Notes under the pieces: model-generated
The model's input: only the letters and a program-made list of their open reading frames with translations
Databases searched by the model: none
Told to the model about the DNA's origin: nothing
In this document: piece by piece, positions 447 to 60,465 of the stretch
How positions within the stretch are numbered: position 1 is the stretch's first letter
Layout: each line of letters begins with the position of its first letter
Position numbers and translations under genes: made by a program
Virus record (IMG/VR): IMGVR_UViG_2061766007_001805
Length of the DNA stretch: 62,391 nucleotides
Reading direction: 5' to 3' (one strand)
From: an uncultured virus (IMG/VR IMGVR_UViG_2061766007_001805)
Taxonomy: Duplodnaviria; Heunggongvirae; Uroviricota; Caudoviricetes

Positions 447-3400
447 ATGGGACAGAAAATAGAACATGGATTTAACAAAACTTAGGATGTTGGCACTCCA
501 ACATCATCACTGAACATACCGGCGTCGTCTATTATCATTCCTGCTCATCCAAAGAAGCGGGTGGAATCGGAAGATGCGGTTGGCGAGCCATTATCTGGAG
601 CATCTGAGCAGACAGAAAATTGTTTTGCTGCGAAACATTAGTTTAATTCGGATTTAACAAATGATGTTGGCAGTCCAACATCATCAACTTGTTTTGCTGC
701 GAAACAACAGGCTGGCACTTCAACATCATCTTCCGGAAATCAGAGGATGTCAGCCGGCAGTCCAACAGGAAATGCGGAGTCTGTGGTTGGTGAGCCTGGG
801 TTGTCAAGTTGTTTTGCTGCAGAACATTAGTTTAATTCGGATTTAACAAATGATGTTGGTGAGCCAACATCATCAAATCGTTCTGCAGCAAAACATCAAG
901 CTGACAGTATCCCAACATCGTCAACAAATTCTGTTGCATCACCCGTGTCTTGCGGAAGTCCAACGTCATTTCGCGGAACATCTGCATCATTTCGCGGAAC
1001 TATACAGTCGGAATCTTCAGCAGAGCAGTCATATTCCGGCACTCCAACATCATCTTACGGAAGTTCTATGGAATCTCGCGGAACCGGAACTGCATTTGGC
1101 GGAGCTGCAACATCATTTGGCGGAAGTTCATCATCATCGGCAGAGTCTGAAGCATCATTAGCAGACTCTGAAGCATCTGCACAGGTTAGTGATGACATTA
1201 CTGCGGATGATGTTGATAGTCCGGTGTCAGACAGTTCCGTATTAAAGCGTAAGCGTGGTCGTGTAAAGGGCAGTGTTTCGTCGAATAAGAGCAGTGGTGC
1301 ATCAAAGAAGATTGGAAAGTACGTATATAGTAAGGATGAAGCGGATGATGAGAAAAACAGTGTGTATGTCGATACAGAGAATTACTTTGACGCAGATCGT
1401 CTTGATGACAATCAGCCGATGAAGCAGGATCGCAAGTTATACAATGAGCCTATTGACATTCCGGATTGTTCTGAAGAGCGTTGGAAGTCTGTATGGAATG
1501 TCTCAGATGAGTACAAGTTGTACATTTCGAATCACGGAAGGGTCCGTATTATACCGGAAATCAAGACTAACAAGCACGGACGTCGTTTTCTCAACATACA
1601 TGGTGTTATGTATCCGATAGATGTGCTTGTAGCGTCTCTGTTCACTACGAATCCTACGAAGTCTGAGTTGGTTATTCACACGGACAGCAGTGTGGGCAAT
1701 GATCGTGCTGACAATCTGTGTTGGGTTCCGAACAAGACTGTTGATTATCCGGTCATCACTATGTGTAATATGACTACGAACACTTATCAGCACAAGTTGT
1801 ATCCGCGTCAGACTGTGGCGTTGATGAAGGATATGATGCACCGTATGATTCTGGACAAGATTCTGGTTCCTCTGATGCCTGGTTTGGCTCGTTGTCAGCG
1901 TCAGGTGATATATGACGGTATTTCTGAAGAGATGAACGATGAGGTTCTTGAGTACATAAGGGAGAAGTATCCGTATATGATGCCTGATGACATAGAGTGG
2001 TTGGGTGACAAGCCGGACAGGTTCAGGAGAAAGTGGAATCATGTGGTTAAGGGTAACAATGAGTACTTGTTGTCTGATGAGGAGTATGCAAGGGCGAAGG
2101 AGAACAAGGTTCAGCAGGTCAAGGACAGGGTGACTGCGTGGAACGAGTACCAGATTATGAGCAATTTGTATGACGGCGGTATAGACGGCGTGAAGTTGGG
2201 TGTGGATGTCGGTCCTTCCGGTGTGTATATGGATGACAGGCATGCGAGGGAGTATGTGGATGATTTGAGGAAGAGCGGTGAGAGCCGTTTGTCTTCGTTG
2301 CAGTACACGGATTTCAACAGGAGAATGAGAGAGCATAACGGTGCATAGCCTGCCAAGAGGTGGAATAACACGGATTTGGATAAAGGTTGTTACGGTGATA
2401 GTGTGAATCGTTCTGCTGCAGAACATCAGGCTGGTTCATCTCAGATGAGCAGTGAGTCTGGTAGCGGTTCGTCTCAGAAGAGCGGTGATTCCGGTCAGAA
2501 GCAGATGACAGCCGGTGACTGGTTCGGCAGTGCGTACGGTGCCGGCGGAATGAGCGGTGCGGTTGAGACTGTGGTGAAGAAGAAGGTGAGTGGTGTTCCT
2601 GATGTAGATGAGAATAATACGGATTTAACAAATGACAGTTATGGTATGTCACAAGCAAATCGTTCTGCAGCAAAACAATTGGCTGATTACTATTATGAAG
2701 ATGAGGATGAAGAAGATGATGATTCTTCTGAAGACAGTCCTGTGAATATCCACATTAATAGAGAAGATAATGAAGATGACAGTCTTGCCGGTCTGTATAG
2801 GGGCGGTAATACGAAGAAAGTGATAAAGATGAAAGAAGATGCTGTGAAGAGACAGCAATAGAGAGAGCAGGAGAATGTGAATTACAAGCGTTCTTCAGGG
2901 CGTGTTATGTTTGACGAATTCAAAGAGTACTTGGGTGGTAAACCTATGACAATGGAAGAGTACAAGAAGAAGCTGGAAGAGTATGAAGAGTTTAGAGAGC
3001 AGGGGTTCATGTATGCTAATTTTGACGAGAGTGTGTTTGAAGGCGGAGTGACTATGTTGGATCACGAGCCGTTGCTGACTCCGAATTAGAGACATGTGAG
3101 GTGGATGCGTGAGAACGGCAAGAGCATTAACGGCACTGTGGTGAAGAGAGACGACACCGGCATAAGATATTTCATTGATGAGAACGGTAAGTGGAGAGTG
3201 ATTATGGAGATTCCTGCGCCTGAGTTGCTGACAATCCGTGGAAAGTGGAATTTTGGCGGGGGAAGAAGGAGTCCGGTTCTGTGCACGTTCCCTAACGGCA
3301 AGGAGATGGTGTTCTGGAGTATAATATGTGCTGCTAAGTACTTGAATTTGGATATTGCGAATATAGTGAATTGTTGTCTTGGTAAGTCATCGATGACTGG

Positions 3401-3767
3401 TGGTATGAAGTTCAGGTATGTGGATGTCAAGGATGAGACGAGAGTCAATGATTTTTATGAAGCAAGATTGGAAGAAGACATAAGGGCATCTGAAGATGAT
3501 GACACTGACGATGAAGATTGCATATATGTTCTGAAACCTAAAATTGATGAGAATGGAAATACTGTGGATAGAAAGAAGGGACGTCCGAAGAAGAGTGAGT
3601 ACAGAAAGTTGTACAAGCCTAAGCAGACTGCCGGTGGTGTTCTGAATGTCATTGACAGAGCATTAGGTGACGTGTTTAGCACTGAAAAGAAGAAAAAGAT
3701 TAAACTGGATGACTATACTCCGACTGAATAGTAGATATAGGATATGCTGGACAGCAGTTTGGGGTGA
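447..3767 (+). CDS. ~1106 aa protein (code 15): Ser-rich repetitive N-terminus, NUMOD4 + degenerate HNH-like domain, acidic linker, NUMOD1-like HTH and AT-hook-like motifs
   Basis: ORFs 945-2348, 2376-2861, 2877-3089 and 3096-3731 share one frame and are separated only by TAG. The frame is open from ATG 447 to TGA 3765-3767. Motifs: ERWKSV...YISNHGRVR (NUMOD4), VLVASLFTTNP...IHTD...NDRADNLCWV (HNH_3-like), FWSIICAAKYL...IVNCCLGK...GGMKFRY (NUMOD1), KKGRPKK. The start codon is uncertain. Confidence 0.7.
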
Positions 3768-11624: not shown

Positions 11625-12449
11625 ATGATNNNNNNNNNNNNNNNNNNNNNNNNNNNNNNNNNNNNNNNNNNNNNNNNNNNNNNNNNCTTGGAGATAACAG
11701 ATGATGATATTATAGTAGATAATCCGCTTGAGCAACCATATGATATAAATGCCGTTGATAAACATCTCACATCTTATTATGAACGCTGTCTATTATTAGC
11801 ATTGATATATGAAAAAGATATATATGCTTTAGATTCACATCCGCATATTATCAATTTGCTCAATAAAGTAAAACATTTCCTTGATGTTTACAACATAGAA
11901 TATGAATATGTATTCCGAGACAAATCAAAGGGAATTGGAAATCTGTACTTATATGATGTCGGCGACTTCAGTGTGATTTCATCATACTATCCAGAATCAT
12001 CGTTAAACTACAAAAGCAACAGATACTACAATGGTGTGACTATTGTCATATATATGAGGAAGATACCAAAGTTCACATATAAGGAATCATATCACTTCAT
12101 TCATAGATTATATAATACATTATGGAGATAGTATATGAATTATGATTCCATGAGAATCACAAAATATAAGAACTTATACACTTGGAATGAAATATGTGAT
12201 TTCATGAGAATCACAAATAAGCCGATTTCACTATATGGGGATATTCTGAATGATTCGTGGAAAGATACGTCAATAACATTAAGAGACCTTACAAATCGAC
12301 GAATAATATATAACTTGCCTTATAGGGATTATTTCAAAAAAGCATTACTGTGTTTCCATAACACAGACGAAGACATAATGATAATTGATGACATGTGTAG
12401 TAAACTCAAAAATGGTATTGACCCGTTCAAAAGCAGTAATGTGCATTGA
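11625..12449 (+). CDS. MILNE-family paralog, subfamily C (PY..FFKKA..DPF), spans an N gap
   Basis: In-frame fragments across a TAG; 5' part hidden by Ns. Confidence 0.75.
11630..11686. other. Assembly gap (N run)
   Basis: Run of n characters. Confidence 0.99.
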
Positions 12450-16208: not shown

Positions 16209-16682
16209 TTGTTAAAGTTTCCTAATAATTCAACAGAAATTTTGTAGTTTGAAAAATTTCATATACCTTTGCACTCAGAGAAATGTTAAGTATTCGTATG
16301 TATTCTTTTTTTCCAATAGCACCCCTGCGTGAGCAACGGTGCTATTTTTTTATATTGGACTGTCAGACATCATCTGTTAAAGTTTTCAAATAATTCAACA
16401 GAATTTTTGTAGTTTGAAAAATTTTATATAACTTTGCACTCAGATAAAATACATCGTATTACTCATATGAATTGTTTGGTAGCACTCTTGCGTGAGCAAC
16501 GGTGCTATTTTTATTGGACCTGATATCATCTGTTAAAGTTTCCTAATAATTCAATAGAAATTTTGTAGTTTGTAAAATTTCATATACCTTTGTACTCAGA
16601 GACAGTTAAGTATTCATATGTTATGTTTATAATTTTTTGCTTGCAAATAGCACTCTTGCGTGAGCAACGGTGCTATTTTTTT
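16209..16682 (+). ncRNA. Three tandem small-RNA-like cassettes: Bacteroidetes promoter, ~40-55 nt variable segment, conserved hairpin TAGCAC..TGCGTGAGCAACGGTGCTA-Tn
   Basis: TAnnTTTG motifs at 16264, 16429 and 16585; hairpins at ~16317, 16480 and 16648; no convincing ORF. Confidence 0.55.
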
Positions 16683-23883: not shown

Positions 23884-24269
23884 CTGTATATGGATAAATC
23901 GGTTTCATTATTTATTCTTAATTGACTGGTAAATGGCTTTTACTACGCTTCAGGTTTAAAAACGGCAGTTTATCACGGATATTCTGTAGAATCATATAAG
24001 AGCTTTGATAGTTGCTGTCCCGGTTCCAACATCATCTCTTGAGTTTCATTTGATTAAGTTGTTTTGCTGCAGAACAATTAGTTAGTTTAGAAATTCAACA
24101 TATTAAAGAAGGTAACGATATACGTGTTGACACATTTTAATTCATATATATTTGATTGACAACTGATTGTGTTGTATTTTGTATTTAATTATTCATATAT
24201 TTGATTTTCATATAAATTGTTTGTTGATTTCAGAATTTTTTTGTAACTTTGCCTGCAAATAAAATTTAT

Positions 24270-25385
24270 ATGATACAGGCTTACAGATATAAGATATTAC
24301 CTGATGCTCAACAGAAAGTTGTTTTATCTAACTTTTTCGGTTGTGCAAGATTCATATATAACTGGGGTTTGAATATAAAGACTAAAGAATACGAGACAAG
24401 CAAGAAAAGTGTCTCATATAATCAACTTGCTAAAGAACTCACTCAACTCAAGAAGAAAGAACAATATTCATGGTTGAATGATGTAACTGTAGAATCTCTA
24501 CAGCAGTCTTTACGGAATCTTGAAACTGCTTTTTCCAAATTCTTTAAGAAAGAAGCAGAATATCCTCAGAAGAAAAAGAAGAGAAAATGCAAAGACTCTG
24601 TGAAATTCATTAGGAATATCCATTTTGATTTCAATAAATGGATGGTTAAACTACCGAAGATTGGTTGGGTGAGTCTTTGCAAGAACAGGATGTTTGATAC
24701 AAACTCATGTAAAACCGGAACTTGTACTGTCAGCAGAGATGCTTGCGGTGAATATTGGTGTTCTATCTTAGTGGATGACAAGCATATTGCTCCGATGAAA
24801 GCCAAATTGGAGAAAGATAATGCAGTCGGCATCGATTTGGGCATCAAAGACTATGCTATACTCTCTGACGGTATCAAGTTCCATAATCCGAAATATCTTG
24901 AGAGAACAAGTCGGAAACTCACATGGACACAGAGGTCTTTTTCAAGAAAGACTAAAGGTTCAAAGAACAGAGAGAAACAGAAGACTAAACTCCTGAAGTA
25001 TTACAGACTTGTCACTAACCAGAGAATTGACTATCTTCATAAGGTTTCCACGGAAATTGTCAGAAATTACAATACAATATGTATTGAAGATCTGAATGTG
25101 GACGGTATGATGAAGAATCATAAACTGGCAAGAAGCATACAGTCTGCAAGTTGGAGTGAGTTCAGAAGGATGTTAGAGTATAAGTCTGAGTGGTATGGTA
25201 AAAATCTGCTTGTCATCGGCAGGTTTGAACCAAGCAGCAAGACTTGTAATAAATGCGGATACATCAAGAAAGACTTGACATTGAAAGACAGAGAATGGAT
25301 ATGTCCTGTATGCGGAGAACATCATGACAGAGATGTTAATGCTGCAAGAAATATCTTGGATATGTCTTTTAAAAATGTGAAATAA
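24270..25385 (+). CDS. tnpB: TnpB RNA-guided endonuclease (IS200/IS605 OrfB family), 371 aa
   Basis: AYRYKI.P...FGCARFIYNWGL HTH; RuvC GIDLG, IEDL and DRDVNAARNI; SSKTC..C / CPVCG zinc finger; TAACTTTG promoter motif at 24244. Confidence 0.95.
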   Translation: MIQAYRYKILPDAQQKVVLSNFFGCARFIYNWGLNIKTKEYETSKKSVSYNQLAKELTQLKKKEQYSWLNDVTVESLQQSLRNLETAFSKFFKKEAEYPQKKKKRKCKDSVKFIRNIHFDFNKWMVKLPKIGWVSLCKNRMFDTNSCKTGTCTVSRDACGEYWCSILVDDKHIAPMKAKLEKDNAVGIDLGIKDYAILSDGIKFHNPKYLERTSRKLTWTQRSFSRKTKGSKNREKQKTKLLKYYRLVTNQRIDYLHKVSTEIVRNYNTICIEDLNVDGMMKNHKLARSIQSASWSEFRRMLEYKSEWYGKNLLVIGRFEPSSKTCNKCGYIKKDLTLKDREWICPVCGEHHDRDVNAARNILDMSFKNVK

Positions 25386-25491
25386 AATGCCCATAGGTAA
25401 GTGGGATAAAGACTGTGGAGGGCAAGGTCACAAGACTCCCTATGAAGCAGTAAGATGTACAAGGCTTTGTGCCAACATGTATATCGTTACC
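25386..25491 (+). ncRNA. Putative omegaRNA/reRNA scaffold region 3' of tnpB
   Basis: GC-richer hairpin-forming segment after the stop codon, conserved in the MITE at 57503-57597; position matches known TnpB reRNAs. Confidence 0.5.
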
Positions 25492-25702
25492 TTTTATTAT
25501 TCCATAGATTAGAGTCTGTTATAATATGTTCATCTGTTTTTATACCTCCTAAGACTATATAATTGCTGTATTTAGATGACATGGCATTATAGTACTCTTC
25601 TATATTGGCATAGTCATCAGTGTTGTGATTAACATCATCTGAAGATTCAATATCCTCATCGGTCAGTTTCAGATCATCAAAATAGTCTTCTTTTAATATC
25701 AT
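25487..25702 (-). pseudogene. 5' remnant of a MILNE-family gene truncated by the TnpB element
   Basis: Similar to the N-terminus of 20025-20768, then runs into the TIR. Confidence 0.85.
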
Positions 25703-50118: not shown

Positions 50119-50234
50119 CTGTATATGGATAAATCAGTTTCATTATTTATTCTCTGGTAAGATGATGTTCGGTACTTCAAGCATCTCTTGAAAGTGATTT
50201 GATAATATTGTTCTGTAATGAAACTATTGGCTTG

Positions 50235-50452
50235 TCAGTTAAATAAACTTAAATAATTGTGTGAATTATTGTATTGTGGTTTATTATTCATACCTTTGTA
50301 TCAGCAAAAGCAACGAACCTCAGTCTATACACATCGGCTGATTAAGTCTAAGATACTGGAACTGATGCAGTTAAGTGTGGAATAAAGAAACTGGTTGGTG
50401 AAAGTTGCTGAATTGAATGTACTGTTATTCAATTATATAGTGATATATTGGA
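50235..50452 (+). promoter_or_regulatory. CRISPR leader with Bacteroidetes promoter (TACCTTTG at 50291); homologous leaders at ~52778-52998, 54681-54893 and 56303-56520
   Basis: Four alignable copies, each directly 5' of an array. Confidence 0.8.
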
Positions 50453-51966
50453 GTCTATACAGTGTCATTATTTCTACTTTATGTAGATTCTTCGAGTACT
50501 TCGAACAACAAACGGAGTCTATACAGTGTCATTATTTCTACTTTATGTAGATATGATTGTATTTTGTTTAAGTTGTTTCAAGTCTATACAGTGTCATTAT
50601 TTCTACTTAAATGCCTACTTCCGTAGGTTGTAGATTCTGCAAGAAGCCTCTTTACACGATTCGTCTATACAGTGTCATTATTTCTACTTTATGTAGATCC
50701 GCAAACAACACATCTGTACAGACCGAGTATATACAGTGTCATTATTTCTACTTCATGTAGATCAATAAGATCTTCCATAGAGACTGTGGAAGTATATACA
50801 GTGTCATTATTTCTACTTTATGTAGATGAAAACCAAACTTAAAAAATAGAGTATAAAGTATATACAGTGTCATTATTTCTACTTTATGTAGATGAATATC
50901 TCTATGAGAGCCGGTCTATACAGTATCATTATTTCTACTTCATGTAGATCTGTGATATTCGCCTTGTATGGTGAATGTAGTTTATACAGTATAATTATTT
51001 CTACTCAAATGCCTACTTCAGTAGGTTGTAGATGTGGCATTGGTTGCCGTTTTCTGTATGTGTCTATACAGTATCATTATTTCTACTTCATGTAGATATG
51101 AGCAATGACATCACTGTACCAATTAAGTCTATACAGTGTCATTATTTCTACTTCATGTAGATGCAAGTGATATGGTTATCTTGATTTGTGAGTCTATACA
51201 GTGTTATTATTTCTACTTAAATGCCTACTTCCGTAGGTTGTAGATGCAATGTAAAGATTGTATCAGACTCTAACGTCTATACAGTATCATTATTTCTACT
51301 TCATGTAGATATATTGACTTCTCGCAAAACAAATTATGTCTATACAGTGTCATTATTTCTACTTAATGCTCACTTCCGTGGGTGTGTAGATCAGTACGGT
51401 CATGACTTGACAGAAGAAGGTATCCTACAATATCATTATTTCTACTTCATGTAGATTATAATATTATATAGCGTCTATACAGTGTCATTATTTCTACTTA
51501 ATGTAGATAAAAAATGCTAGTATAATTTTCAGAAGAGTCTATACAATATCATTATTTCTACTTAATGCCTATTTCCGTAGGTTGTAGATGTCGTCATTAT
51601 ATCACTCACTCTGGTCTTCAGATCTATATAATATCATTATTTCTACTTCATGTAGATCATTGTCCTTTGATTCCAGCAAGATGACCGAATTCTTTAAGAA
51701 TATATACAACAGTATAATTATTTCTACTTAATGCCTATTTCCGTAGGTATGTAGATGTGGGCACTTATCCTGAGAAAGTAGCGGTGTCTATACAGTGCCA
51801 TTATTTCTACTTCATGTAGATTTCTGCTTTCTTTCCGTTGAATATCCTTTGTATATACAGTATCATTCATTTCTACTTAAATGCCTACTTCTGTAGGTAT
51901 GTAGATATGTAATATTCGCCGCCTTTGTGTGAGAACTCAAGACAATATCATTCGTTTCCACTTAAT
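50453..51966 (+). CRISPR. CRISPR array 1, Cas12a-type repeat GTCTATACAGTGTCATTATTTCTACTTTATGTAGAT; 22 repeats / 21 spacers; 7 long-loop repeat variants
   Basis: 36-nt repeats with mostly 27-30 nt unique spacers; 3' ATTTCTAC-loop-GTAGAT matches the type V-A crRNA handle. Confidence 0.93.
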
Positions 51967-52591
51967 GCTGGCACTACCATAAGTCACGTACTAATGCTTC
52001 CTTCCGTAGATAAGGATACTTAAGGAAATCGGTTACATCTGCTATATAGAACCCCCAGTTCGTAAGGTTATAATGTTTTTTTATCAATTCGAGATTAGAA
52101 ATATTCAAGTCGGTGTTCCTGTTAATCTTAGCTATCTGTTGGGCGATGTTGCTGATGAATCTACAAGCAAAACTATATGAATGGGCTGTCGGGAGATTGA
52201 GAAATATCACCATTCTCAGATTGTTACTGATTTCATTCAAATCCCTATACTTCGTTATCAACTTATAACCATACAGGTCAAATAAATTACAAGATTTGTA
52301 TCTTTCTTTAATACATATATACGAATGTGTCTGCAGAGTAGGCTATGAGTATTCTATTCCGTATACATTGAATATGTATTGAAGTCTCTTGACGATATGT
52401 GATATTCTATCTACCGAGTGCTTGTCTTTTATTTTAACATCAAAACCCAAACAATGACTGTACTTTGACTGCATGTCTATGTACCATTCTTCCGGACTGT
52501 TATACTCATTACCGACAATGTCGTCATCATGAGTTATAATGTCGTCATCGGTCAGTTTCAAATCATCAAAGTAGTCTTCGTTCAATCTCAT
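51962..52591 (-). CDS. MILNE-family paralog, 209 aa (code 15); stop codon lies inside the last CRISPR repeat
   Basis: TAGs at 52343 and 51974; TAA at 51962-51964. Confidence 0.8.
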
Positions 52592-52998
52592 CTGTATATG
52601 GATAAAGTATTTTCATTATTTATTCTTCAGTAGGATGATGCCCGGTAATTTACCATAACTGCGTTAGCTGCTATAAAAACAGCAGTTTATTATGGAAGAC
52701 AAAAAAACGGTCCGGCACTTCAACTACATCTCTTGATAGTGATTTGATGATATTGTTCTATAACAAAACGATTGAATTGTCAGTTAAATAAACTTAAATA
52801 ATTGTGCAATGTTATTGTATTGTGGTTTATTATTCATACCTTTGTAGCATCAAAAGCAATGAACCTCAGTCTCTACATAATTGCTGAATTCAGATAAGAT
52901 AATGAAACTGAATGAGTTAATTAAAAATGTGGAAAATCAGCAGGTAAAAGTTGCTGAAGATGATGTGCTGTTATTCAATTATATAGTGATATATTGGA

Positions 52999-53767
52999 GT
53001 CTATACAGTGTCATTCATTTCTACTAATGTAGATCGGGATTGTCGCCCCATACACGTGATGTAGTCTATACAGTGTCATTCATTTCTACTAATGTAGATA
53101 TTGATGAAATAATAATACAGATTCATGTCTATACAGTGTCATTCATTTCTACTAATGTAGATTGAGAATTCTTAATGAGTTTGCCCTCAAGTCTATACAG
53201 TGTCATTCATTTCTACTAATGTAGATGGTTTGTTAATTATGTCTATACAGTGTCATTATTTCTACTTTATGTAGATACAACGGAATAATCCTTAATGTGA
53301 ATTGTTAAGACAGTGTTATTATTTCTACTTAATACCTACTTCCGTAGGTTGTAGATACCTATTCATCTCCATGTACGTTATTTAGTCAAGACAGTATAAT
53401 TATTTCTACTAATGTAGATGAATTGAATAGTCTATTGATACGTCTATGCAGTATAATTATTTCTACTTAATGCCTACTTCCGTAGGTATGTAGATACAAC
53501 GGAATAATCCATAATGTGAATTGTTAAGACAGTGTTATTATTTCTACTTAATACTTACTTATGTATGTTGTAGATAAGCATCACCTTGAAATCGTGTCTA
53601 TACAGTATCATTATTTCTACTTCATGTAGATGCGGTTATGATAGTCAAATGATGACATTGTCTATACAGTATCATTATTTCTACTTAATGCCTACATCCG
53701 TAGGTTGTAGATTGGTACCACAAAACGCTCATGACACATGTATATACAGTATCATTATTTCCACTTA
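52999..53767 (+). CRISPR. CRISPR array 2, 12 repeats / 11 spacers
   Basis: Repeat GTCTATACAGTGTCATTCATTTCTACTAATGTAGAT and variants, 4 of them long-loop. Confidence 0.92.
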
Positions 53768-54517
53768 TTGCTCAATTCCATAAGTAGTTCTCTGATTCTT
53801 TGCAAATAGACATCCGAGTACACAATCTCTATCGTGCTCATTCAACACTTGCTTGTAGAAACTGTTATAGTCATTGAATGATTTAGCATCACTGCCGTAC
53901 ACATTTATCTCTTCTTCATATGTACTGTAATAATAACCGCCGTCTATGGAAAAGAGGTTTACAAGGAAATCATCACGTTTGAAGATAGTCTTTGTTAGAT
54001 AGTAAAGAAATTTCATTCCCTGCTGTATTGTATTGAAATCAGGCATATTGAAATGCATATAAAGTACATACCAGCGTGATTCATATTCCCCATTAGTTCT
54101 CTTGATTTGAGTATCTTTACATGCAAGGTGTATGTATCCGTAGTCATATATGTTGTAATTCGGTATGGAATGACCATCTATTTCAACCGTGTTGTCATAA
54201 TCTTCTTCATACGTGTCTATCAAGAATAGTTCGGAGTGTTCTATTCCGTATGTGTCGAACAGATTGTATAGCATAGTCTATATCTTCTTTACAGTGACCG
54301 GATTTATATCATGGCTTAACGCTTCACGATTTGAAATTTTGAAATCAATACACAATCTGTCAGTGTAATGTTTCTCACAGTACAGAATATATTCATATCC
54401 GGACTGGAAGTTTTTATGTGATTTAATAAACATATCTTCACCAACAGTGCTGTCTGAAGACGTAATGTCGTCATCAGTCAATTTCAAATCATTAAAGTAG
54501 TCTTCTTTTAATATCAT
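53765..54517 (-). CDS. MILNE-family paralog, 250 aa (code 15); stop codon inside the last repeat
   Basis: One TAG at 54278. Confidence 0.85.
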
Positions 54518-54893
54518 CTGTATATAGATAAAGTGGTTTCATTATTTATTCTCTCTGTATGATGTCCGGTAATTTTCCGTAACTACGCTTCAGGTTAAAA
54601 AACAGCAGTTTATTGTGGAAACATAAAAGAAGCCAGTCCGGTAATTTGGCTACATATATTCTGTAATGAAACAATTGGCTTGTCAGTTAAATAAACTTAA
54701 AATATTATCCAATAATATTATATTGTGATTTTATATTTGTACCTTTGTAACAGCAATAGCAACAAACATCAGTCTATATACATCGGCTGATTAAGCCTAA
54801 GATACTGGGACTGACACAGTTAAGTGTAGAATAATGGAACTGGTGAATAAAAGTTGCTGAATCGAATGTGCTGTTATTCAGTTACTTAGCAGT

Positions 54894-55230
54894 ATTCTGA
54901 CAGTATCATTATTTCTACTTAAATGCCTACTTCCGTAGGTATGTAGATTAAATCTCTGTCTTTTTGCAGAATCTTCTGTCAAGACAGTATCATAATTTCT
55001 ACTTAAATGCTTACATTCGTAGGTCGTAGATACTTACTCGTCGCCATGCACGTCATTTAGTCAAGACAGTATAATTATTTCTACTTAATGTAGATCTTTG
55101 GGCGAACTCATCAAGAAAGCCTTTGTCAAGACCGTATCATTATTTCTACTTAATGTAGATAACAACGTTTAATAAAAACTTCAGTCAAGACAGTATCATT
55201 ATTTCTACTTAATGCCTACTTCCGTAGGTC
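54894..55230 (+). CRISPR. CRISPR mini-array 3, 5 repeats / 4 spacers
   Basis: GTCAAGACAGTATCATTATTTCTACTTAATGTAGAT variants, 3 of them long-loop. Confidence 0.88.
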
Positions 55231-55274
55231 GGAAAACAGTTCTTCAGTTTCATATGATGTTGTCCATGAGTTCA

Positions 55275-55997
55275 TCAATTATCTGATGTGAATTGATCGG
55301 AGATGAACATATTAAGTCTTCTTAGTATGGTTTCATCCGGTGCGATTGAAGTATAGTTCATATATTCTTTTTGGTTTATATGAAAACCGTACTGCGACTC
55401 TGGTTGAAAAATGTTATTAACAACCATCTTATTCGGATCCTGTATATAAAGTGTGTACATATTGAAAATTTTTCTATATGATTCGTTGTTCCATAAACAT
55501 TTCATAATGGCATTGATGAACTTGCATGCTTCTGAATACTTATGTACTTTGGGCAAGTCTAAGAACATCATAACACACATCTCCCATTGTGTGATGCAGT
55601 TGCGTTTGTATTCTTCCATACTATTGTATGGCGTAACGAACTTGTAACCGCGGAAGTCGATAAAGTTACAATGGGCATAATCTTCATCCCTTCTCAAATA
55701 ATAATGCCGTAGTACTGGTTCAGAGTAATCTATTCCGTATACATCGAATATATAGTGAAGCTTCTTGAGAATAGACGGTATCACATTATCCCATATGTAA
55801 TATTGTTTTTCCGATAAGATTTTGTTGCCGTCTTTCTCTAACCTGATAAGCAGACAGTGGCTGTACTTGGATTTCATATCCCTGTACCATTTTTCCGGAT
55901 TCCTGTATTCGACAGCAACAGGCAGGTTGTCTGATGAAGACTCTATGTCATCGTCAGTGATTTTATTGTCATCAAAGAAATCTTCGTTCAATCTCAT
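55275..55997 (-). CDS. MILNE-family paralog, 240 aa
   Basis: Intact ORF; the family C-terminal remnant (KLKNCFP) continues past TGA into the last repeat. Confidence 0.85.
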   Translation of the reverse strand: MRLNEDFFDDNKITDDDIESSSDNLPVAVEYRNPEKWYRDMKSKYSHCLLIRLEKDGNKILSEKQYYIWDNVIPSILKKLHYIFDVYGIDYSEPVLRHYYLRRDEDYAHCNFIDFRGYKFVTPYNSMEEYKRNCITQWEMCVMMFLDLPKVHKYSEACKFINAIMKCLWNNESYRKIFNMYTLYIQDPNKMVVNNIFQPESQYGFHINQKEYMNYTSIAPDETILRRLNMFISDQFTSDN

Positions 55998-56072
55998 CTG
56001 TATATGGATAAAGTAGTTTCATTATTTATTCTTCAGTAAGATGATGTCAGGTACTTCAACTGCATCTCCCTA

Positions 56073-56182
56073 TACCATATTTCCGGATTAGTGCATTCGA
56101 CAGCAGTAGTCTGGTTGTCTGATGAAGACTCAATGCTATCGTCAGTGATTTTATTATCAAATAGGTATTCGTTCAATAACAT
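56073..56182 (-). pseudogene. Degraded 5' fragment of a family gene (copy of the start of 55275-55997)
   Basis: MLLNEYLFDNKITDD-like start with the conserved upstream motif, then breaks off. Confidence 0.7.
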
Positions 56183-56520
56183 CTGTATATGAATAAAATA
56201 TTTTCATTATTTATTTTTCGGTAATATGATATCAGGTACTTCAACCGTATCTCTTGATAGTGAATCGGTGATATTGTTCTGTAATAAAACAATTGGCTTT
56301 AAGAGTTAAATAAACTTAAATACTTGTGTGATGTTATTGCATTGTGGTTTTATATTTGTACTTTTGTATCAGCAAAAGCATCAAGCCTTAGCATCTACAC
56401 AATTGCTTGAGTATGTTTAATATATTAAGACTGAAAGAGTTAATTGGAAATGTGGAAAACTGGTGAGTAAAAGTTGCTGAATAGAGTGTACTGTTATTCA
56501 GTTACTTAGCAGTATTCTGA

Positions 56521-56848
56521 GTCAATATAGTATAATTATTTCTACTTTATGTAAATCGAGAATCCGTTCCAACCACTACGGCGAGTCAAAATAGTATAAT
56601 TATTTCTACTTAATACCTACCTCCATAAGTGTAGGTCGTAGATAGGTCCTCAATGCACTTGTGGTCAGTAATGTCTATACAGTGTTATTATTTCTACTTC
56701 ATGTAGATTATCGATGATAATCATCTTCTATAAGTCTATACAGTATAATTATTTCTACTTAATGCCTACATCCGTAGGTTAGGTATGTAGATGAAAGGTG
56801 ATTGGTGAAGCATATGTACTGTCTATACAATATCATTATTCTTACTTA
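56521..56848 (+). CRISPR. CRISPR mini-array 4, 5 repeats / 4 spacers
   Basis: Same handle; 2 long-loop variants. Confidence 0.85.
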
Positions 56849-57451
56849 AAAGTCTTCTTCAGTAAGATCCACTCTCATTGAATATACTCCGACTGTTTGA
56901 ATTTCCTGAGTTGCATATGACTCAAACTGGTAAACTGGTTCAGTTTCGGAATCAGCACCCATAATGTATGTCACAAGACCTTCAGTGAAATAACTGTCAT
57001 CCGACTTGCTATCACGTAATGCGGATAGTGCGAGAGATGCACTGTGTGGCGGGAAATCTCCAGGGAATACACATCCGAAGAACGGACTATCCGTAACATC
57101 AACTGTTATATCACTGAGACTTGAGTCAGAGAACCAGACGAACAGTGTAGGTGCATTCATATATCCTTCACCGTCATGCTGAAGGATTGTGTACACACCG
57201 TGACACTCTTTTCCGTGTTCTTTGTCTATCAGGACAGATACAGTGCCGTCTTCTTCAGAGTCCTGCTTTACGTACCAGCCTTGAAACTCATACAGCAATA
57301 CAAGTTGTCCCGGATAATTGTCATTTGCCCAGCGACGTACCATGACATTCATTTTGTAAAGCAGGTCATTGAAATCAGCAGTGACCGGTGTGTCATAGTG
57401 CAGTTCAGGTTCATTGTCTGTGCCTAATACAAGATGATTGTTAGCTTCCAT
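56846..57451 (-). CDS. Hypothetical acidic protein, 201 aa (MEANNH...), unrelated to the family; stop codon inside the last repeat of array 4
   Basis: ATG at 57451 after an A-rich leader; the extra 48 aa in the ORF track come from the MITE and UTR. Confidence 0.75.
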   Translation of the reverse strand: MEANNHLVLGTDNEPELHYDTPVTADFNDLLYKMNVMVRRWANDNYPGQLVLLYEFQGWYVKQDSEEDGTVSVLIDKEHGKECHGVYTILQHDGEGYMNAPTLFVWFSDSSLSDITVDVTDSPFFGCVFPGDFPPHSASLALSALRDSKSDDSYFTEGLVTYIMGADSETEPVYQFESYATQEIQTVGVYSMRVDLTEEDF

Positions 57452-59499: not shown

Positions 59500-59727
59500 T
59501 TGTATATGAATAAAGTATTTTCCTTATTTATTATTGAAAATGTCATATGGTAGTCTAACTGTGTTATCTTGAGTATTATCATATAGTTGTTTTGTTACAG
59601 AACAACCGGTAATATACTCAGCAGATGATGAAGCGTCGGTCTGCTTATGATGTTTGGACTGCCGGACATCATATTACTGGAAAAATGAGTAAAATGCCTA
59701 TTTCCATAAGTCAAGTACTTCCGTAGG

Positions 59728-60465
59728 TCAAGCACCATATATGCTCTATATTACCTGATTGAATTTTTTTGACAATGCTTCTCTTATCGCAAATGGATTA
59801 TGATTCGTAAAAAACATATGAATTAATTCAACCAATTCATTGATTGACATTGTAAGTTGGGGATGCTGATATGTATTGTAAATAATTGCAGAATCAAGGT
59901 ATTTGTCATATTTTTCTGTAAAAAGACATACGTTCAAGTCATTGTAATATTCTCCAAAGAACTCATTCTTCCATAGTTGCTTAGTGATATTGTGGATGAA
60001 CAGGCATGCTGCATTATATGTTTTCAACTTTGGCAAATTAACGAAGTACACTATCTTTATATAAGTGGTTGCAAGATTATACTTACTGAGTTCCGGTATT
60101 GTTTTATACTCTGTAATCACTTTATATTGGTGGAAATCGATGAAATTACAAGATTTGTATTTGTCAAGTATATACCAGGCCGGAGCGTCTTGAATAGTCG
60201 GTTCTGAATAATCCATTCCGTATGTGTCTAAAATGTATTGGAATCTCTTGATAAGCTGCTATATTTGTTGGCTCCATAATCTGTCATCAGTTAGGATTGG
60301 GATGTCTTTCTTCTTTATGTTTATCGACAGGAAACAGTTGTACTTAGTCTATATATTTTTGAACCAGTCTTCCGGACTTGCATACTCGGCAGTATCACTG
60401 TCCGAAGAAGTGATGTCATCATCAGTAATCTCTATCTTGTCAAAGTAGTCTTCGTTTAATAGCAT
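59728..60465 (-). CDS. MILNE-family paralog, 245 aa (code 15)
   Basis: MLLNEDYF start in frame; 3 TAG. Confidence 0.8.

Follow-up and report, generated by a model that had tools for sequence, protein, structure and literature searches.

Type V-A arrays of CRISPR (short palindromic repeats, clustered and regularly interspaced) carry a UCUAC[N3-5]GUAGAU motif at the repeat's 3' end (PMC7757703). The same motif is used by other type V effectors too (PMC7757703), so the repeat motif alone does not fix the effector. The last repeats of V-A arrays are reported to gather disabling mutations, which blocks the making of a guide from flanking DNA (PMC13187072). Arrays without cas genes on mobile elements, phage RNAs with V-A-like repeats, disabled last repeats and engineered loop extensions are all already known. 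The DNA analysed here is a stretch of 62,391 nucleotides (nt) from an uncultured virus (IMG/VR record IMGVR_UViG_2061766007_001805), called the window below; genes reported as absent are absent from this window, which is one part of the genome. It appears to be a TAG-recoded, phage-like element from the cattle gut and carries four arrays that, by their repeat motif, would be of type V-A (Cas12a-type). Each array ends within the 3' end of a convergent gene or of its remnant. The favoured explanation, to which a probability of about 0.65 is given, is that these gene tails are a by-product of open reading frames (ORFs) running into the dead last repeat of a V-A-type array.

The repeat-guide layout, the 3' handle motif and the disabled oldest repeat are shared with V-A arrays in which a mutated terminal repeat prevents extraneous CRISPR RNA (crRNA; Liao et al. 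2019, through PMC13187072). In contrast to those arrays, the whole 3' arm of a loop-extended repeat is lost here, the last codons of a neighbouring gene overprint the repeat, and the surroundings contain no cas genes. Added nucleotides or an aptamer hairpin in the handle loop are also present in Cas12a crRNAs engineered with extended loops or as split molecules (PMC11031708). Those guides are designed, whereas 15 of the 40 natural repeats here have a hairpin insert of 17–19 nt (with loops of up to 27 nt in array 4) and are mixed with ordinary repeats. Racr (PMC10651486) and Cracr (bioRxiv 10.1101/2024.10.29.618823) RNAs are similar in having V-A-type repeats on a phage-like element, no cas genes in view and multiplexed units. 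Their units contain one or a few short pseudo-spacers matching cas promoters, while here 40 mostly full-length spacers, which vary between relatives, are distributed over four arrays. Virus-borne mini-CRISPR arrays in virus-virus conflict (PMC11656645) are also cas-less arrays on a mobile element, with Cas presumably acting in trans; however, no targets were found here in INPHARED or IMG/VR, and array 1 is far longer, with 22 spacers.

Arrays and their long-loop repeats

The pattern TTTCTACT-N(2-30)-GTAGAT has 39 matches in the window (0.08 expected), all on the + strand between 50471 and 56792. They are grouped in four arrays (Table 1), which hold 40 complete repeats and 4 last repeats; in a narrower delimitation arrays 3 and 4 span 54894–55211 and 56521–56848. 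Among the short-loop repeats, 24 are exact fits to UCUAC[N3-5]GUAGAU, N being 4 or 5, and another reads GTAAAT. For the 15 long-loop repeats N is 22–28, which is outside the published range of the V-A motif. Spacers are unique save for one duplicated block, as in regular V-A repeat-spacer arrays, whose unique spacers are about 24–30 nt long; here 31 of 40 are 27–32 nt long, with equal lengths after short-loop and long-loop repeats. In front of every array stands a leader of about 215–225 nt, a sequence present solely at these four places. The leaders are 71–85% identical to one another and their left junction is identical in all four arrays. A TACCTTTG box is conserved in all leaders, which we take to be similar to the Bacteroidota -7 promoter element. 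Between the gene starting at 55997 and the leader of array 4, a duplicated and decayed copy of the 5' end of that family gene was seen (56051–56253).

Table 1. Coordinates of the arrays and leaders, the genes meeting the array ends, and other features of the window (aa, amino acids; X4, X5, X6 and X9, sets of related contigs).
Feature	Position	Strand	Remarks
Leader of array 1	50232..50452	+	
Array 1	50453..51964	+	22 complete repeats (15 short-loop, 7 long-loop) and last repeat at 51937; repeat-like sequence onward to 52011; junction bridged in X5, X6, X9
Last repeat of array 1	51937..52011	+	5' arm changed to TCCAC; two tandem degenerate insert copies, ending GTAGAT
Leader of array 2	52777..52998	+	
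Array 2	52999..53768	+	11 complete repeats (7 short-loop, 4 long-loop) and last repeat at 53740; junction bridged in X6, X9
Duplicated 80-nt block in array 2	53277-53356 and 53496-53575		
Leader of array 3	54680..54893	+	
Array 3	54894..55231	+	4 complete repeats (2 long-loop, 2 short-loop) and last repeat at 55184; junction deduced only from joint-side lengths (68-76 letters left of 55255) in X4, X5, X9
Leader of array 4	56298..56520	+	
Array 4	56521..56868	+	4 complete repeats (2 short-loop; the 2 long-loop ones have loops of 27 nt) and last repeat at 56821; junction bridged in X5, X9
Family gene 51962	51962..52591	-	209 aa, two in-frame TAG; tail LRKEALVRDLWQCQH-stop encoded by last repeat of array 1
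Divergent family gene 53765	53765..54517	-	250 aa, one in-frame TAG; ends TTYGIEQ-stop, tail TYGIEQ-stop from decayed loop insert of last repeat of array 2
Family gene 55209, degraded 3' part	55209..55997	-	ORF stops at adjacent TGA TGA (55272-55277)
Non-family gene 56846	56846..57451	-	201 aa, truncated at junction; last six codons LTEEDF-stop on decayed loop insert
Loop-insert-like element, no array	59690..59730	+	Duplicated form as at end of array 1; abuts TGA stop of family gene 59728-60465
HNH/NUMOD protein	447-3767		1106 aa; 9 in-frame TAG
TnpB (IS605 OrfB)	24249-25385		
C5 methylase			534 aa
NERD protein			

The long-loop (L) repeats have a loop of 21–27 nt after CTACT, compared with 4–5 nt in the ordinary form, and all long loops begin with TAAT or TAAAT. 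Removing 17–19 nt from each of six L handles left exactly the short handle at 55078–55095, which has a TAAT loop. This relation indicates that the long form is derived from the short form by one insertion, and the L form would thus have arisen from a TAAT-loop variant through a palindromic insertion of 17–19 nt in the handle loop. The boundary of the insert is ambiguous in some L copies through a 3-nt ATG repeat, and an ATG duplication flanks the palindromic insert in 5 of 15 copies (counted by eye from the alignment). The insert is predicted to fold into an inner hairpin of 6 base pairs (GCCUAC, UUCC, GUAGGU), stacked over the outer handle stem of 5 base pairs. In this inner hairpin 96.7% of the cells are paired, one change is compensatory, and the G-U pairs are consistent with the + strand only. 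Across the 15 L copies, variable cells amount to 0/135 in the 9-nt 5' part of the handle, 23/300 in the insert and 40/254 in the 5' part of the repeat. Four of the five differences between the two copies of the 80-nt block in array 2 are located in the inner hairpin. With up to three mismatches, the loop core gives 17 matches where 0.07 are expected, all of them in the arrays and at 51996 and 59696/59713.

The handle loop is solvent-exposed in solved Cas12a complexes. ErCas12a tolerates crRNA loops lengthened by 5 nt, by 10 nt or by a complete MS2 aptamer, at lower activity (PMC11031708), and LbCas12a is widely tolerant of loop substitutions (PMC12508434). Because the loop is exposed and engineered extensions are tolerated, the L guides could work with Cas12a. 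No natural Cas12a-type repeat with a hairpin-extended loop was found in a limited literature search, which is no proof of absence. A survey mining 69,117 arrays for this motif permitted loops of 1–8 nt (PMC7757703).

Array ends and the tails of convergent genes

Translation with TAG as a sense codon gives minus-strand ORFs whose stops lie at 51962, 53765 and 56846 (the stop codon being counted in), and those at 51962 and 53765 are whole only with this reading. On the + strand all three stops are a TTA in equal repeat register: its first base is the T that closes the last repeat's 5' arm (TCCAC-T, TCCAC-T and CTTAC-T, respectively), and TA follows. The preliminary description of the window had claimed that each array end overlaps a convergent gene in this way, with a TTA at 55209 closing an in-frame remnant beyond two TGAs. 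The ORF ends and the repeat register confirm the three stops, and translation confirms the remnant. It was further claimed there that the insert reads TYGSRH-stop in antisense and that the gene at 53765–54517 ends in TTYGIEQ-stop, and both were found on translation.

The last repeats were compared with the complete ones. All four align with the L repeats as far as the end of the insert; beyond it, where (T)GTAGAT is expected, all but that of array 1 diverge. Three of the four are without the 3' arm, and three have a mutated 5' arm, as in disabled last repeats. The last repeat of array 3 has an intact loop insert and keeps two further bases but no GTAGAT arm, and that of array 4 has the arm CTTAC and a decayed loop insert. 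In ungapped comparison with an internal long loop, the sequence after the 5' arm is identical at 20/20 positions in array 3, 14/20 in array 2 and 15/21 in array 4. Random positions in the window did as well at a frequency of at most 2.5e-5 for arrays 2 and 4, and in 0 of 200,000 cases for array 3; array 1 requires gaps. No terminator-like site was found at any array/gene junction.

The antisense of the L repeat gives TYGSRH-stop in frame 1 (ending at the TAA), PTEVGIKqK and two stops in frame 2 (the stop being 9 nt farther), and is open in frame 0. Six orthologues of gene 53765 were compared. Four have the tails TYGSRH, TYGNGH, TYGSGR and TYGSEH, one has PTEAGIK from the other frame, and one is without such a tail. 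Because the insert is thus read in a second frame by one orthologue, the shared TTA is no more than the stop met first in one frame out of three. Gene 51962 lacks the C-terminal block FFPEK...CFPD of its family, and its last 15 codons are the antisense of insert-like DNA. The in-frame remnant of gene 55209 reads ...SDN, two stops, THGQHHMKLKNCFPTYGSRH and a stop; it continues to ...KLKNCFPTYGSRH, where it is closed by the TTA at 55209. The remnant is one codon short of the usual ...CFPD-stop and then reads TYGSRH-stop. Its orthologue P0002, which is 82% identical, has no stop across the stretch of the two TGAs and goes on to ...KLKNCFP.

The first 196 of the 201 residues of the non-family gene 56846 match its distant homologue P0044, which is 59 residues longer beyond that point, and P0045–P0047 are likewise longer. 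Close relatives of this gene end with ...MRVESTEDDI and ...STEADI, with equal tail length. The product is acidic. The extra C-terminal region of the longer homologues P0044 and P0047 ends in DFNNDG...F.E, which resembles a calcium-binding loop, and P0045 has a looser DKNHDG.

The truncation of two genes, one of them outside the family, and the drifting orthologue tails indicate that the gene tails come from the repeat and not the reverse. In the favoured explanation, each array would be transcribed on the + strand from its own conserved leader toward the convergent gene. The oldest repeat of a V-A array, which would otherwise be the source of a guide made from flanking DNA, would lose its function, here as an L repeat with its 3' stem arm lost or degraded. 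The array would lie directly against the next gene, with neither spacer DNA nor a terminator between them. A minus-strand ORF would then enter the antisense of the dead repeat and halt at the first in-frame stop, which in one frame is the TAA opposite the loop TTA. The shared TTA, the TYGSRH-like tails, the drift of the tails, the change of frame and the tail on an unrelated gene would all be expected because the ORF reads the antisense of the dead repeat up to its first stop. Seen in the light of the array type, it is ordinary for the stop and the last repeat to overlap. Why the last repeat is dead, and in which order the events took place, is what we infer.

Sequence related to the insert also occurs beyond the shared TTAs. 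The preliminary description had placed it near 51977 and, without an array, near 59696–59729, and this was confirmed, with CCATAAGTCANGTAC found without mismatch at 51977 and 59704 only. The family gene next to the solitary element, 59728–60465, ends about three codons before the usual family end. At the equivalent place, a contig of X9 has a consensus insert, and the letters in front of it are similar to the 12 bases with which the repeat begins. The solitary element is probably a relic of a lost array end.

The opposite direction of descent had been suggested earlier, namely that the insert derives from the 3' ends of family mRNAs. In this rival explanation, a piece of a family-gene 3' end (a native tail with its stop, or a 3' hairpin) would have entered the repeats, and gene and array would recombine there as a module. 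The insert is indeed open in one antisense frame and ends with TAA, its minus-strand form is a short GGAA-loop hairpin followed by a U-rich run, an insert-like element without array stands at a family gene end (59690), and the five junctions involve different genes. The best remaining point for this origin is that TYG is kept in five of the six orthologue tails, and that two changes in the window copy are synonymous there. However, the L repeat is a short-loop repeat plus 17–19 nt, and 41 of the 45 family ORFs have nothing insert-like at or after their stop. Many of the tabulated family ends are ...CFPD-stop, several of them followed by a hairpin and a T-run, and no other family representative with a TYGSRH-like tail was found among 187 stored proteins. 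The tail is also carried by a non-family gene truncated by at least 59 residues and by gene 51962, which is truncated before its C-terminal block, and one orthologue reads it in another frame. The repeat-like letters before the insert in X9 are as a relic array end would have them. An origin from family genes is therefore considered improbable. That the insert is antisense to a family mRNA 3' end is true but trivial, as the last repeat lies opposite the 3' end of the gene.

The junctions are kept in contigs from four other cattle-gut studies (Table 1); in the X4, X5 and X9 contigs, 55255–55357 is replaced. An assembly artefact was dropped as the source of the junctions, as independent runs bridge them. 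An integron-like attC reading of the hairpin was also dropped, because no integrase was seen and the genes on either side are paralogues, each having a conserved upstream region of its own. Between equivalent repeats the relatives have different spacers of 28–30 nt, indicating that the array content turns over. Leader and array DNA is 71–85% identical, whereas the flanking genes share at most 41% of residues, so the arrays behave as a conserved cassette among fast-changing genes. No gene swapping at the junctions was seen in the related contigs from the four studies. Thus, the earlier suggestions that genes and arrays recombine at a fixed point in the repeat, and that gene plus array may be a module, hold in part. 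The junctions are real, lie at nearly one place and are kept when aligned across relatives, and the leader-array cassette is conserved, but swapping of different genes at the shared point was not seen in the relatives.

Such conservation could also mean that the overlap is functional, and that convergent transcription of array and gene gives overlapping RNAs which tune the gene or the last guide. This would be consistent with the lack of terminator-like sites between any array and its convergent gene, and with the overlap being kept in relatives. In contrast, the overlapped tails drift, one of them in a changed frame, and one overlapped gene (55209) is degraded. A functional overlap is thus quite unlikely.

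The position of the junctions bears on a further rival explanation. The array-side end is equal within about 8 nt at five junctions (the four arrays and 59690), while the gene-side breakpoints fall short of the native ends by 1 codon, about 3 codons, about 45 aa and at least 59 aa. The insert may mark where a leader-array cassette, mobile or recombinogenic, ends on its right side, and a hairpin-directed break or a site-specific recombinase at the L repeat would join new DNA and truncate genes. The identical left junction of the leaders, the far higher likeness of leaders and arrays than of flanking genes, and a palindromic insert that can be removed, with an ambiguous boundary, from six handles and shows the 3-nt ATG duplication in a third of L copies are in line with this. 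It would also explain why all last repeats are of the L form and share an array-side end. However, the ends on the array side differ slightly, a cassette with terminal repeats was not found, and no recombinase gene is beside the arrays, with only TnpB at 24249 and the HNH/NUMOD protein at 447–3767 seen. No cassette copy outside this cluster, or at other sites in relatives, was found in IMG/VR, in the JGI/GTDB scans or in the related contigs. Such a cassette end is improbable or, at best, unlikely. The two ideas could be joined, with the insert as a natural loop extension tolerated by Cas12a and also a break or recombination hotspot that fixes the distal end of the cassette, which would be repeatedly fused to different genes and truncate them. 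If this unlikely combination were true, arrays would spread as units within the recoded phage genome and remodel the neighbouring gene family.

Several points weigh against the explanation of the tails by dead last repeats. All four last repeats are of the L form, although only 15 of 40 complete repeats are (a chance of 0.02 if independent). The nearly single array-side end at five junctions, with different and non-homologous gene-side breakpoints, is not predicted by simple descent from one ancestral junction. Neither of these is accounted for by the favoured explanation. The kept TYG, together with two changes of the window copy from the consensus insert that are synonymous in the gene frame, could reflect a native tail under coding constraint. 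In the window, no 5' part of a repeat can be recognised at the 59690 element. Compared with shuffles, the inner hairpin has no significant covariation (173/500). In addition, with no cas12a in the window and no protospacer found in INPHARED or IMG/VR, the use of the arrays by a Cas12a can only be presumed.

Spacers and possible use of the arrays

No cas gene (cas12a, cas4, cas1 or cas2) is among the ORFs of the window, the largest of which encode the HNH/NUMOD protein and the methylase (Table 1). Seven spacers are short, with 14–25 nt (starts at 50894, 51457, 53227, 53420, 53576, 55161 and 56709), which is the size range of the regulatory, non-cleaving guides of phage Cracr RNAs (bioRxiv 10.1101/2024.10.29.618823). 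Two pairs of spacers from different arrays match each other. In the pair 53357–53384 and 55032–55059 the differences are mostly at every third base, and in the pair 53163–53190 and 55096–55124 the match is on opposite strands (53163 against the reverse complement of 55096). Both pairs look as if they were derived from variants of one coding target.

Targets and related arrays were searched for in several collections. Spacers have no self-match elsewhere in the window. Array 1 gave only chance-level matches against INPHARED phages at E up to 10, including weak matches to Prevotella Lak phages at E = 5, and no full-length protospacer. Two degenerate spacer patterns had 0 and 28 (chance) matches in IMG/VR, the best being 23/28, again with no full-length protospacer. 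Nothing was found in IMG/VR with the repeat pattern, the long-loop pattern or the family profile, and no relative was found among INPHARED phages by DNA or by protein. In 401 Bacteroidales genomes the pattern TATTTCTACT-N(3-5)-GTAGAT had 8 single matches, none in an array, which has little weight as the pattern is narrow. JGI metagenome contigs and GTDB genome contigs were scanned once each, with 4 and 12 single matches, respectively, and the handle motif in 0 of 16. Eleven of these 16 loci were viewed in context and are ordinary sequence with no repeat array; eight are copies of one conserved stretch, several of them found in genomes of Paludibacteraceae or Bacteroidales. A search of Rfam returned nothing at the gathering score or at E up to 1.

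These data bear on whether the arrays are RNA anti-CRISPR devices similar to Racr or Cracr, which would soak up or re-aim a host Cas12a, with the L repeats as decoys or as handles that alter processing. In such devices a pseudo-spacer would match a cas promoter of the host, or a site that represses a toxin, beside a PAM. The 62 kb without a cas gene, the seven short spacers and the two spacer pairs across arrays that match variants of one target, as in Cracr arrays, would fit such devices, and phage V-A repeat-like RNAs and multiplexed Cracr arrays have been described (bioRxiv 10.1101/2024.10.29.618823). In contrast, 31 of 40 spacers are full length, the spacer content turns over between relatives, and no target was found in the INPHARED or IMG/VR searches. 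The absence of cas genes covers the window, and a cas12a elsewhere in the genome is possible. An anti-CRISPR role is possible but doubtful.

The recoded element and its gene family

With genetic code table 11 the window appears poorly coding. When TAG is read as sense (translated as Q, which is assumed), about 45 tandem ORFs of about 250 aa are seen, which form one family with the N-terminus MxLNEDYFDD..TDDDI. The 45 family ORFs contain 63 in-frame TAG codons and stop at TAA (32) or TGA (13) and never at TAG, as expected for TAG recoding. A tRNA scan found none, hence no suppressor tRNA is in the 62-kb window, and no structural or packaging phage genes were found among its ORFs. Because all of these are missing, we infer rather than observe that the element is a phage. 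Its source is indicated by cattle-gut metagenome runs, of which two from one sample contain about 90% of the words of the stretch, and runs from 13 further studies contain 11–19%.

The family paralogues extend over 4058–61591, mostly on the minus strand, and their 5' untranslated regions are strongly conserved compared with proteins of 20–40% residue identity. Pfam, PHROGs, NCBIfam and PADLOC gave no match to the family, and Atlas gave no lead. Among 1.84 billion proteins, 200 representatives were found at E <= 0.001, and a word-indexed search gave 40 matches, all metagenome-derived (ENA, Logan and one JGI record). The AlphaFold model of a family protein is confident (pLDDT, predicted local distance difference test, 84.6) and has a mixed alpha/beta core. 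Foldseek found no structural relative at E <= 0.001, and the best VIA Z was 6.6.

Some further features were noted. The TnpB gene occupies a slot expected for a family gene, and beside it lie 71 aa left over from the N-terminus of a family protein, together with the conserved region upstream (25487–25702). A 165-bp (base pair) tandem repeat of 2.4 copies lies in a gene-free stretch (16210–16600), with a TATACCTTTGCA box in every unit, like the box of the array leaders. A run of 57 N is located at 11630–11686, inside the family ORF 11625–12449.

The extra hairpin in many of the repeats may matter. Hairpin-extended loops exceed the range of 1–8 nt allowed in the motif survey (PMC7757703), so arrays of this kind are invisible to motif-based surveys. 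The natural L repeats would be a natural precedent for loop-engineered guides. A TAG-recoded element of the cattle gut, with four arrays of changing spacers amid about 45 paralogues, offers a tractable example of how a mobile element may depend on a Cas protein from outside its own genome.

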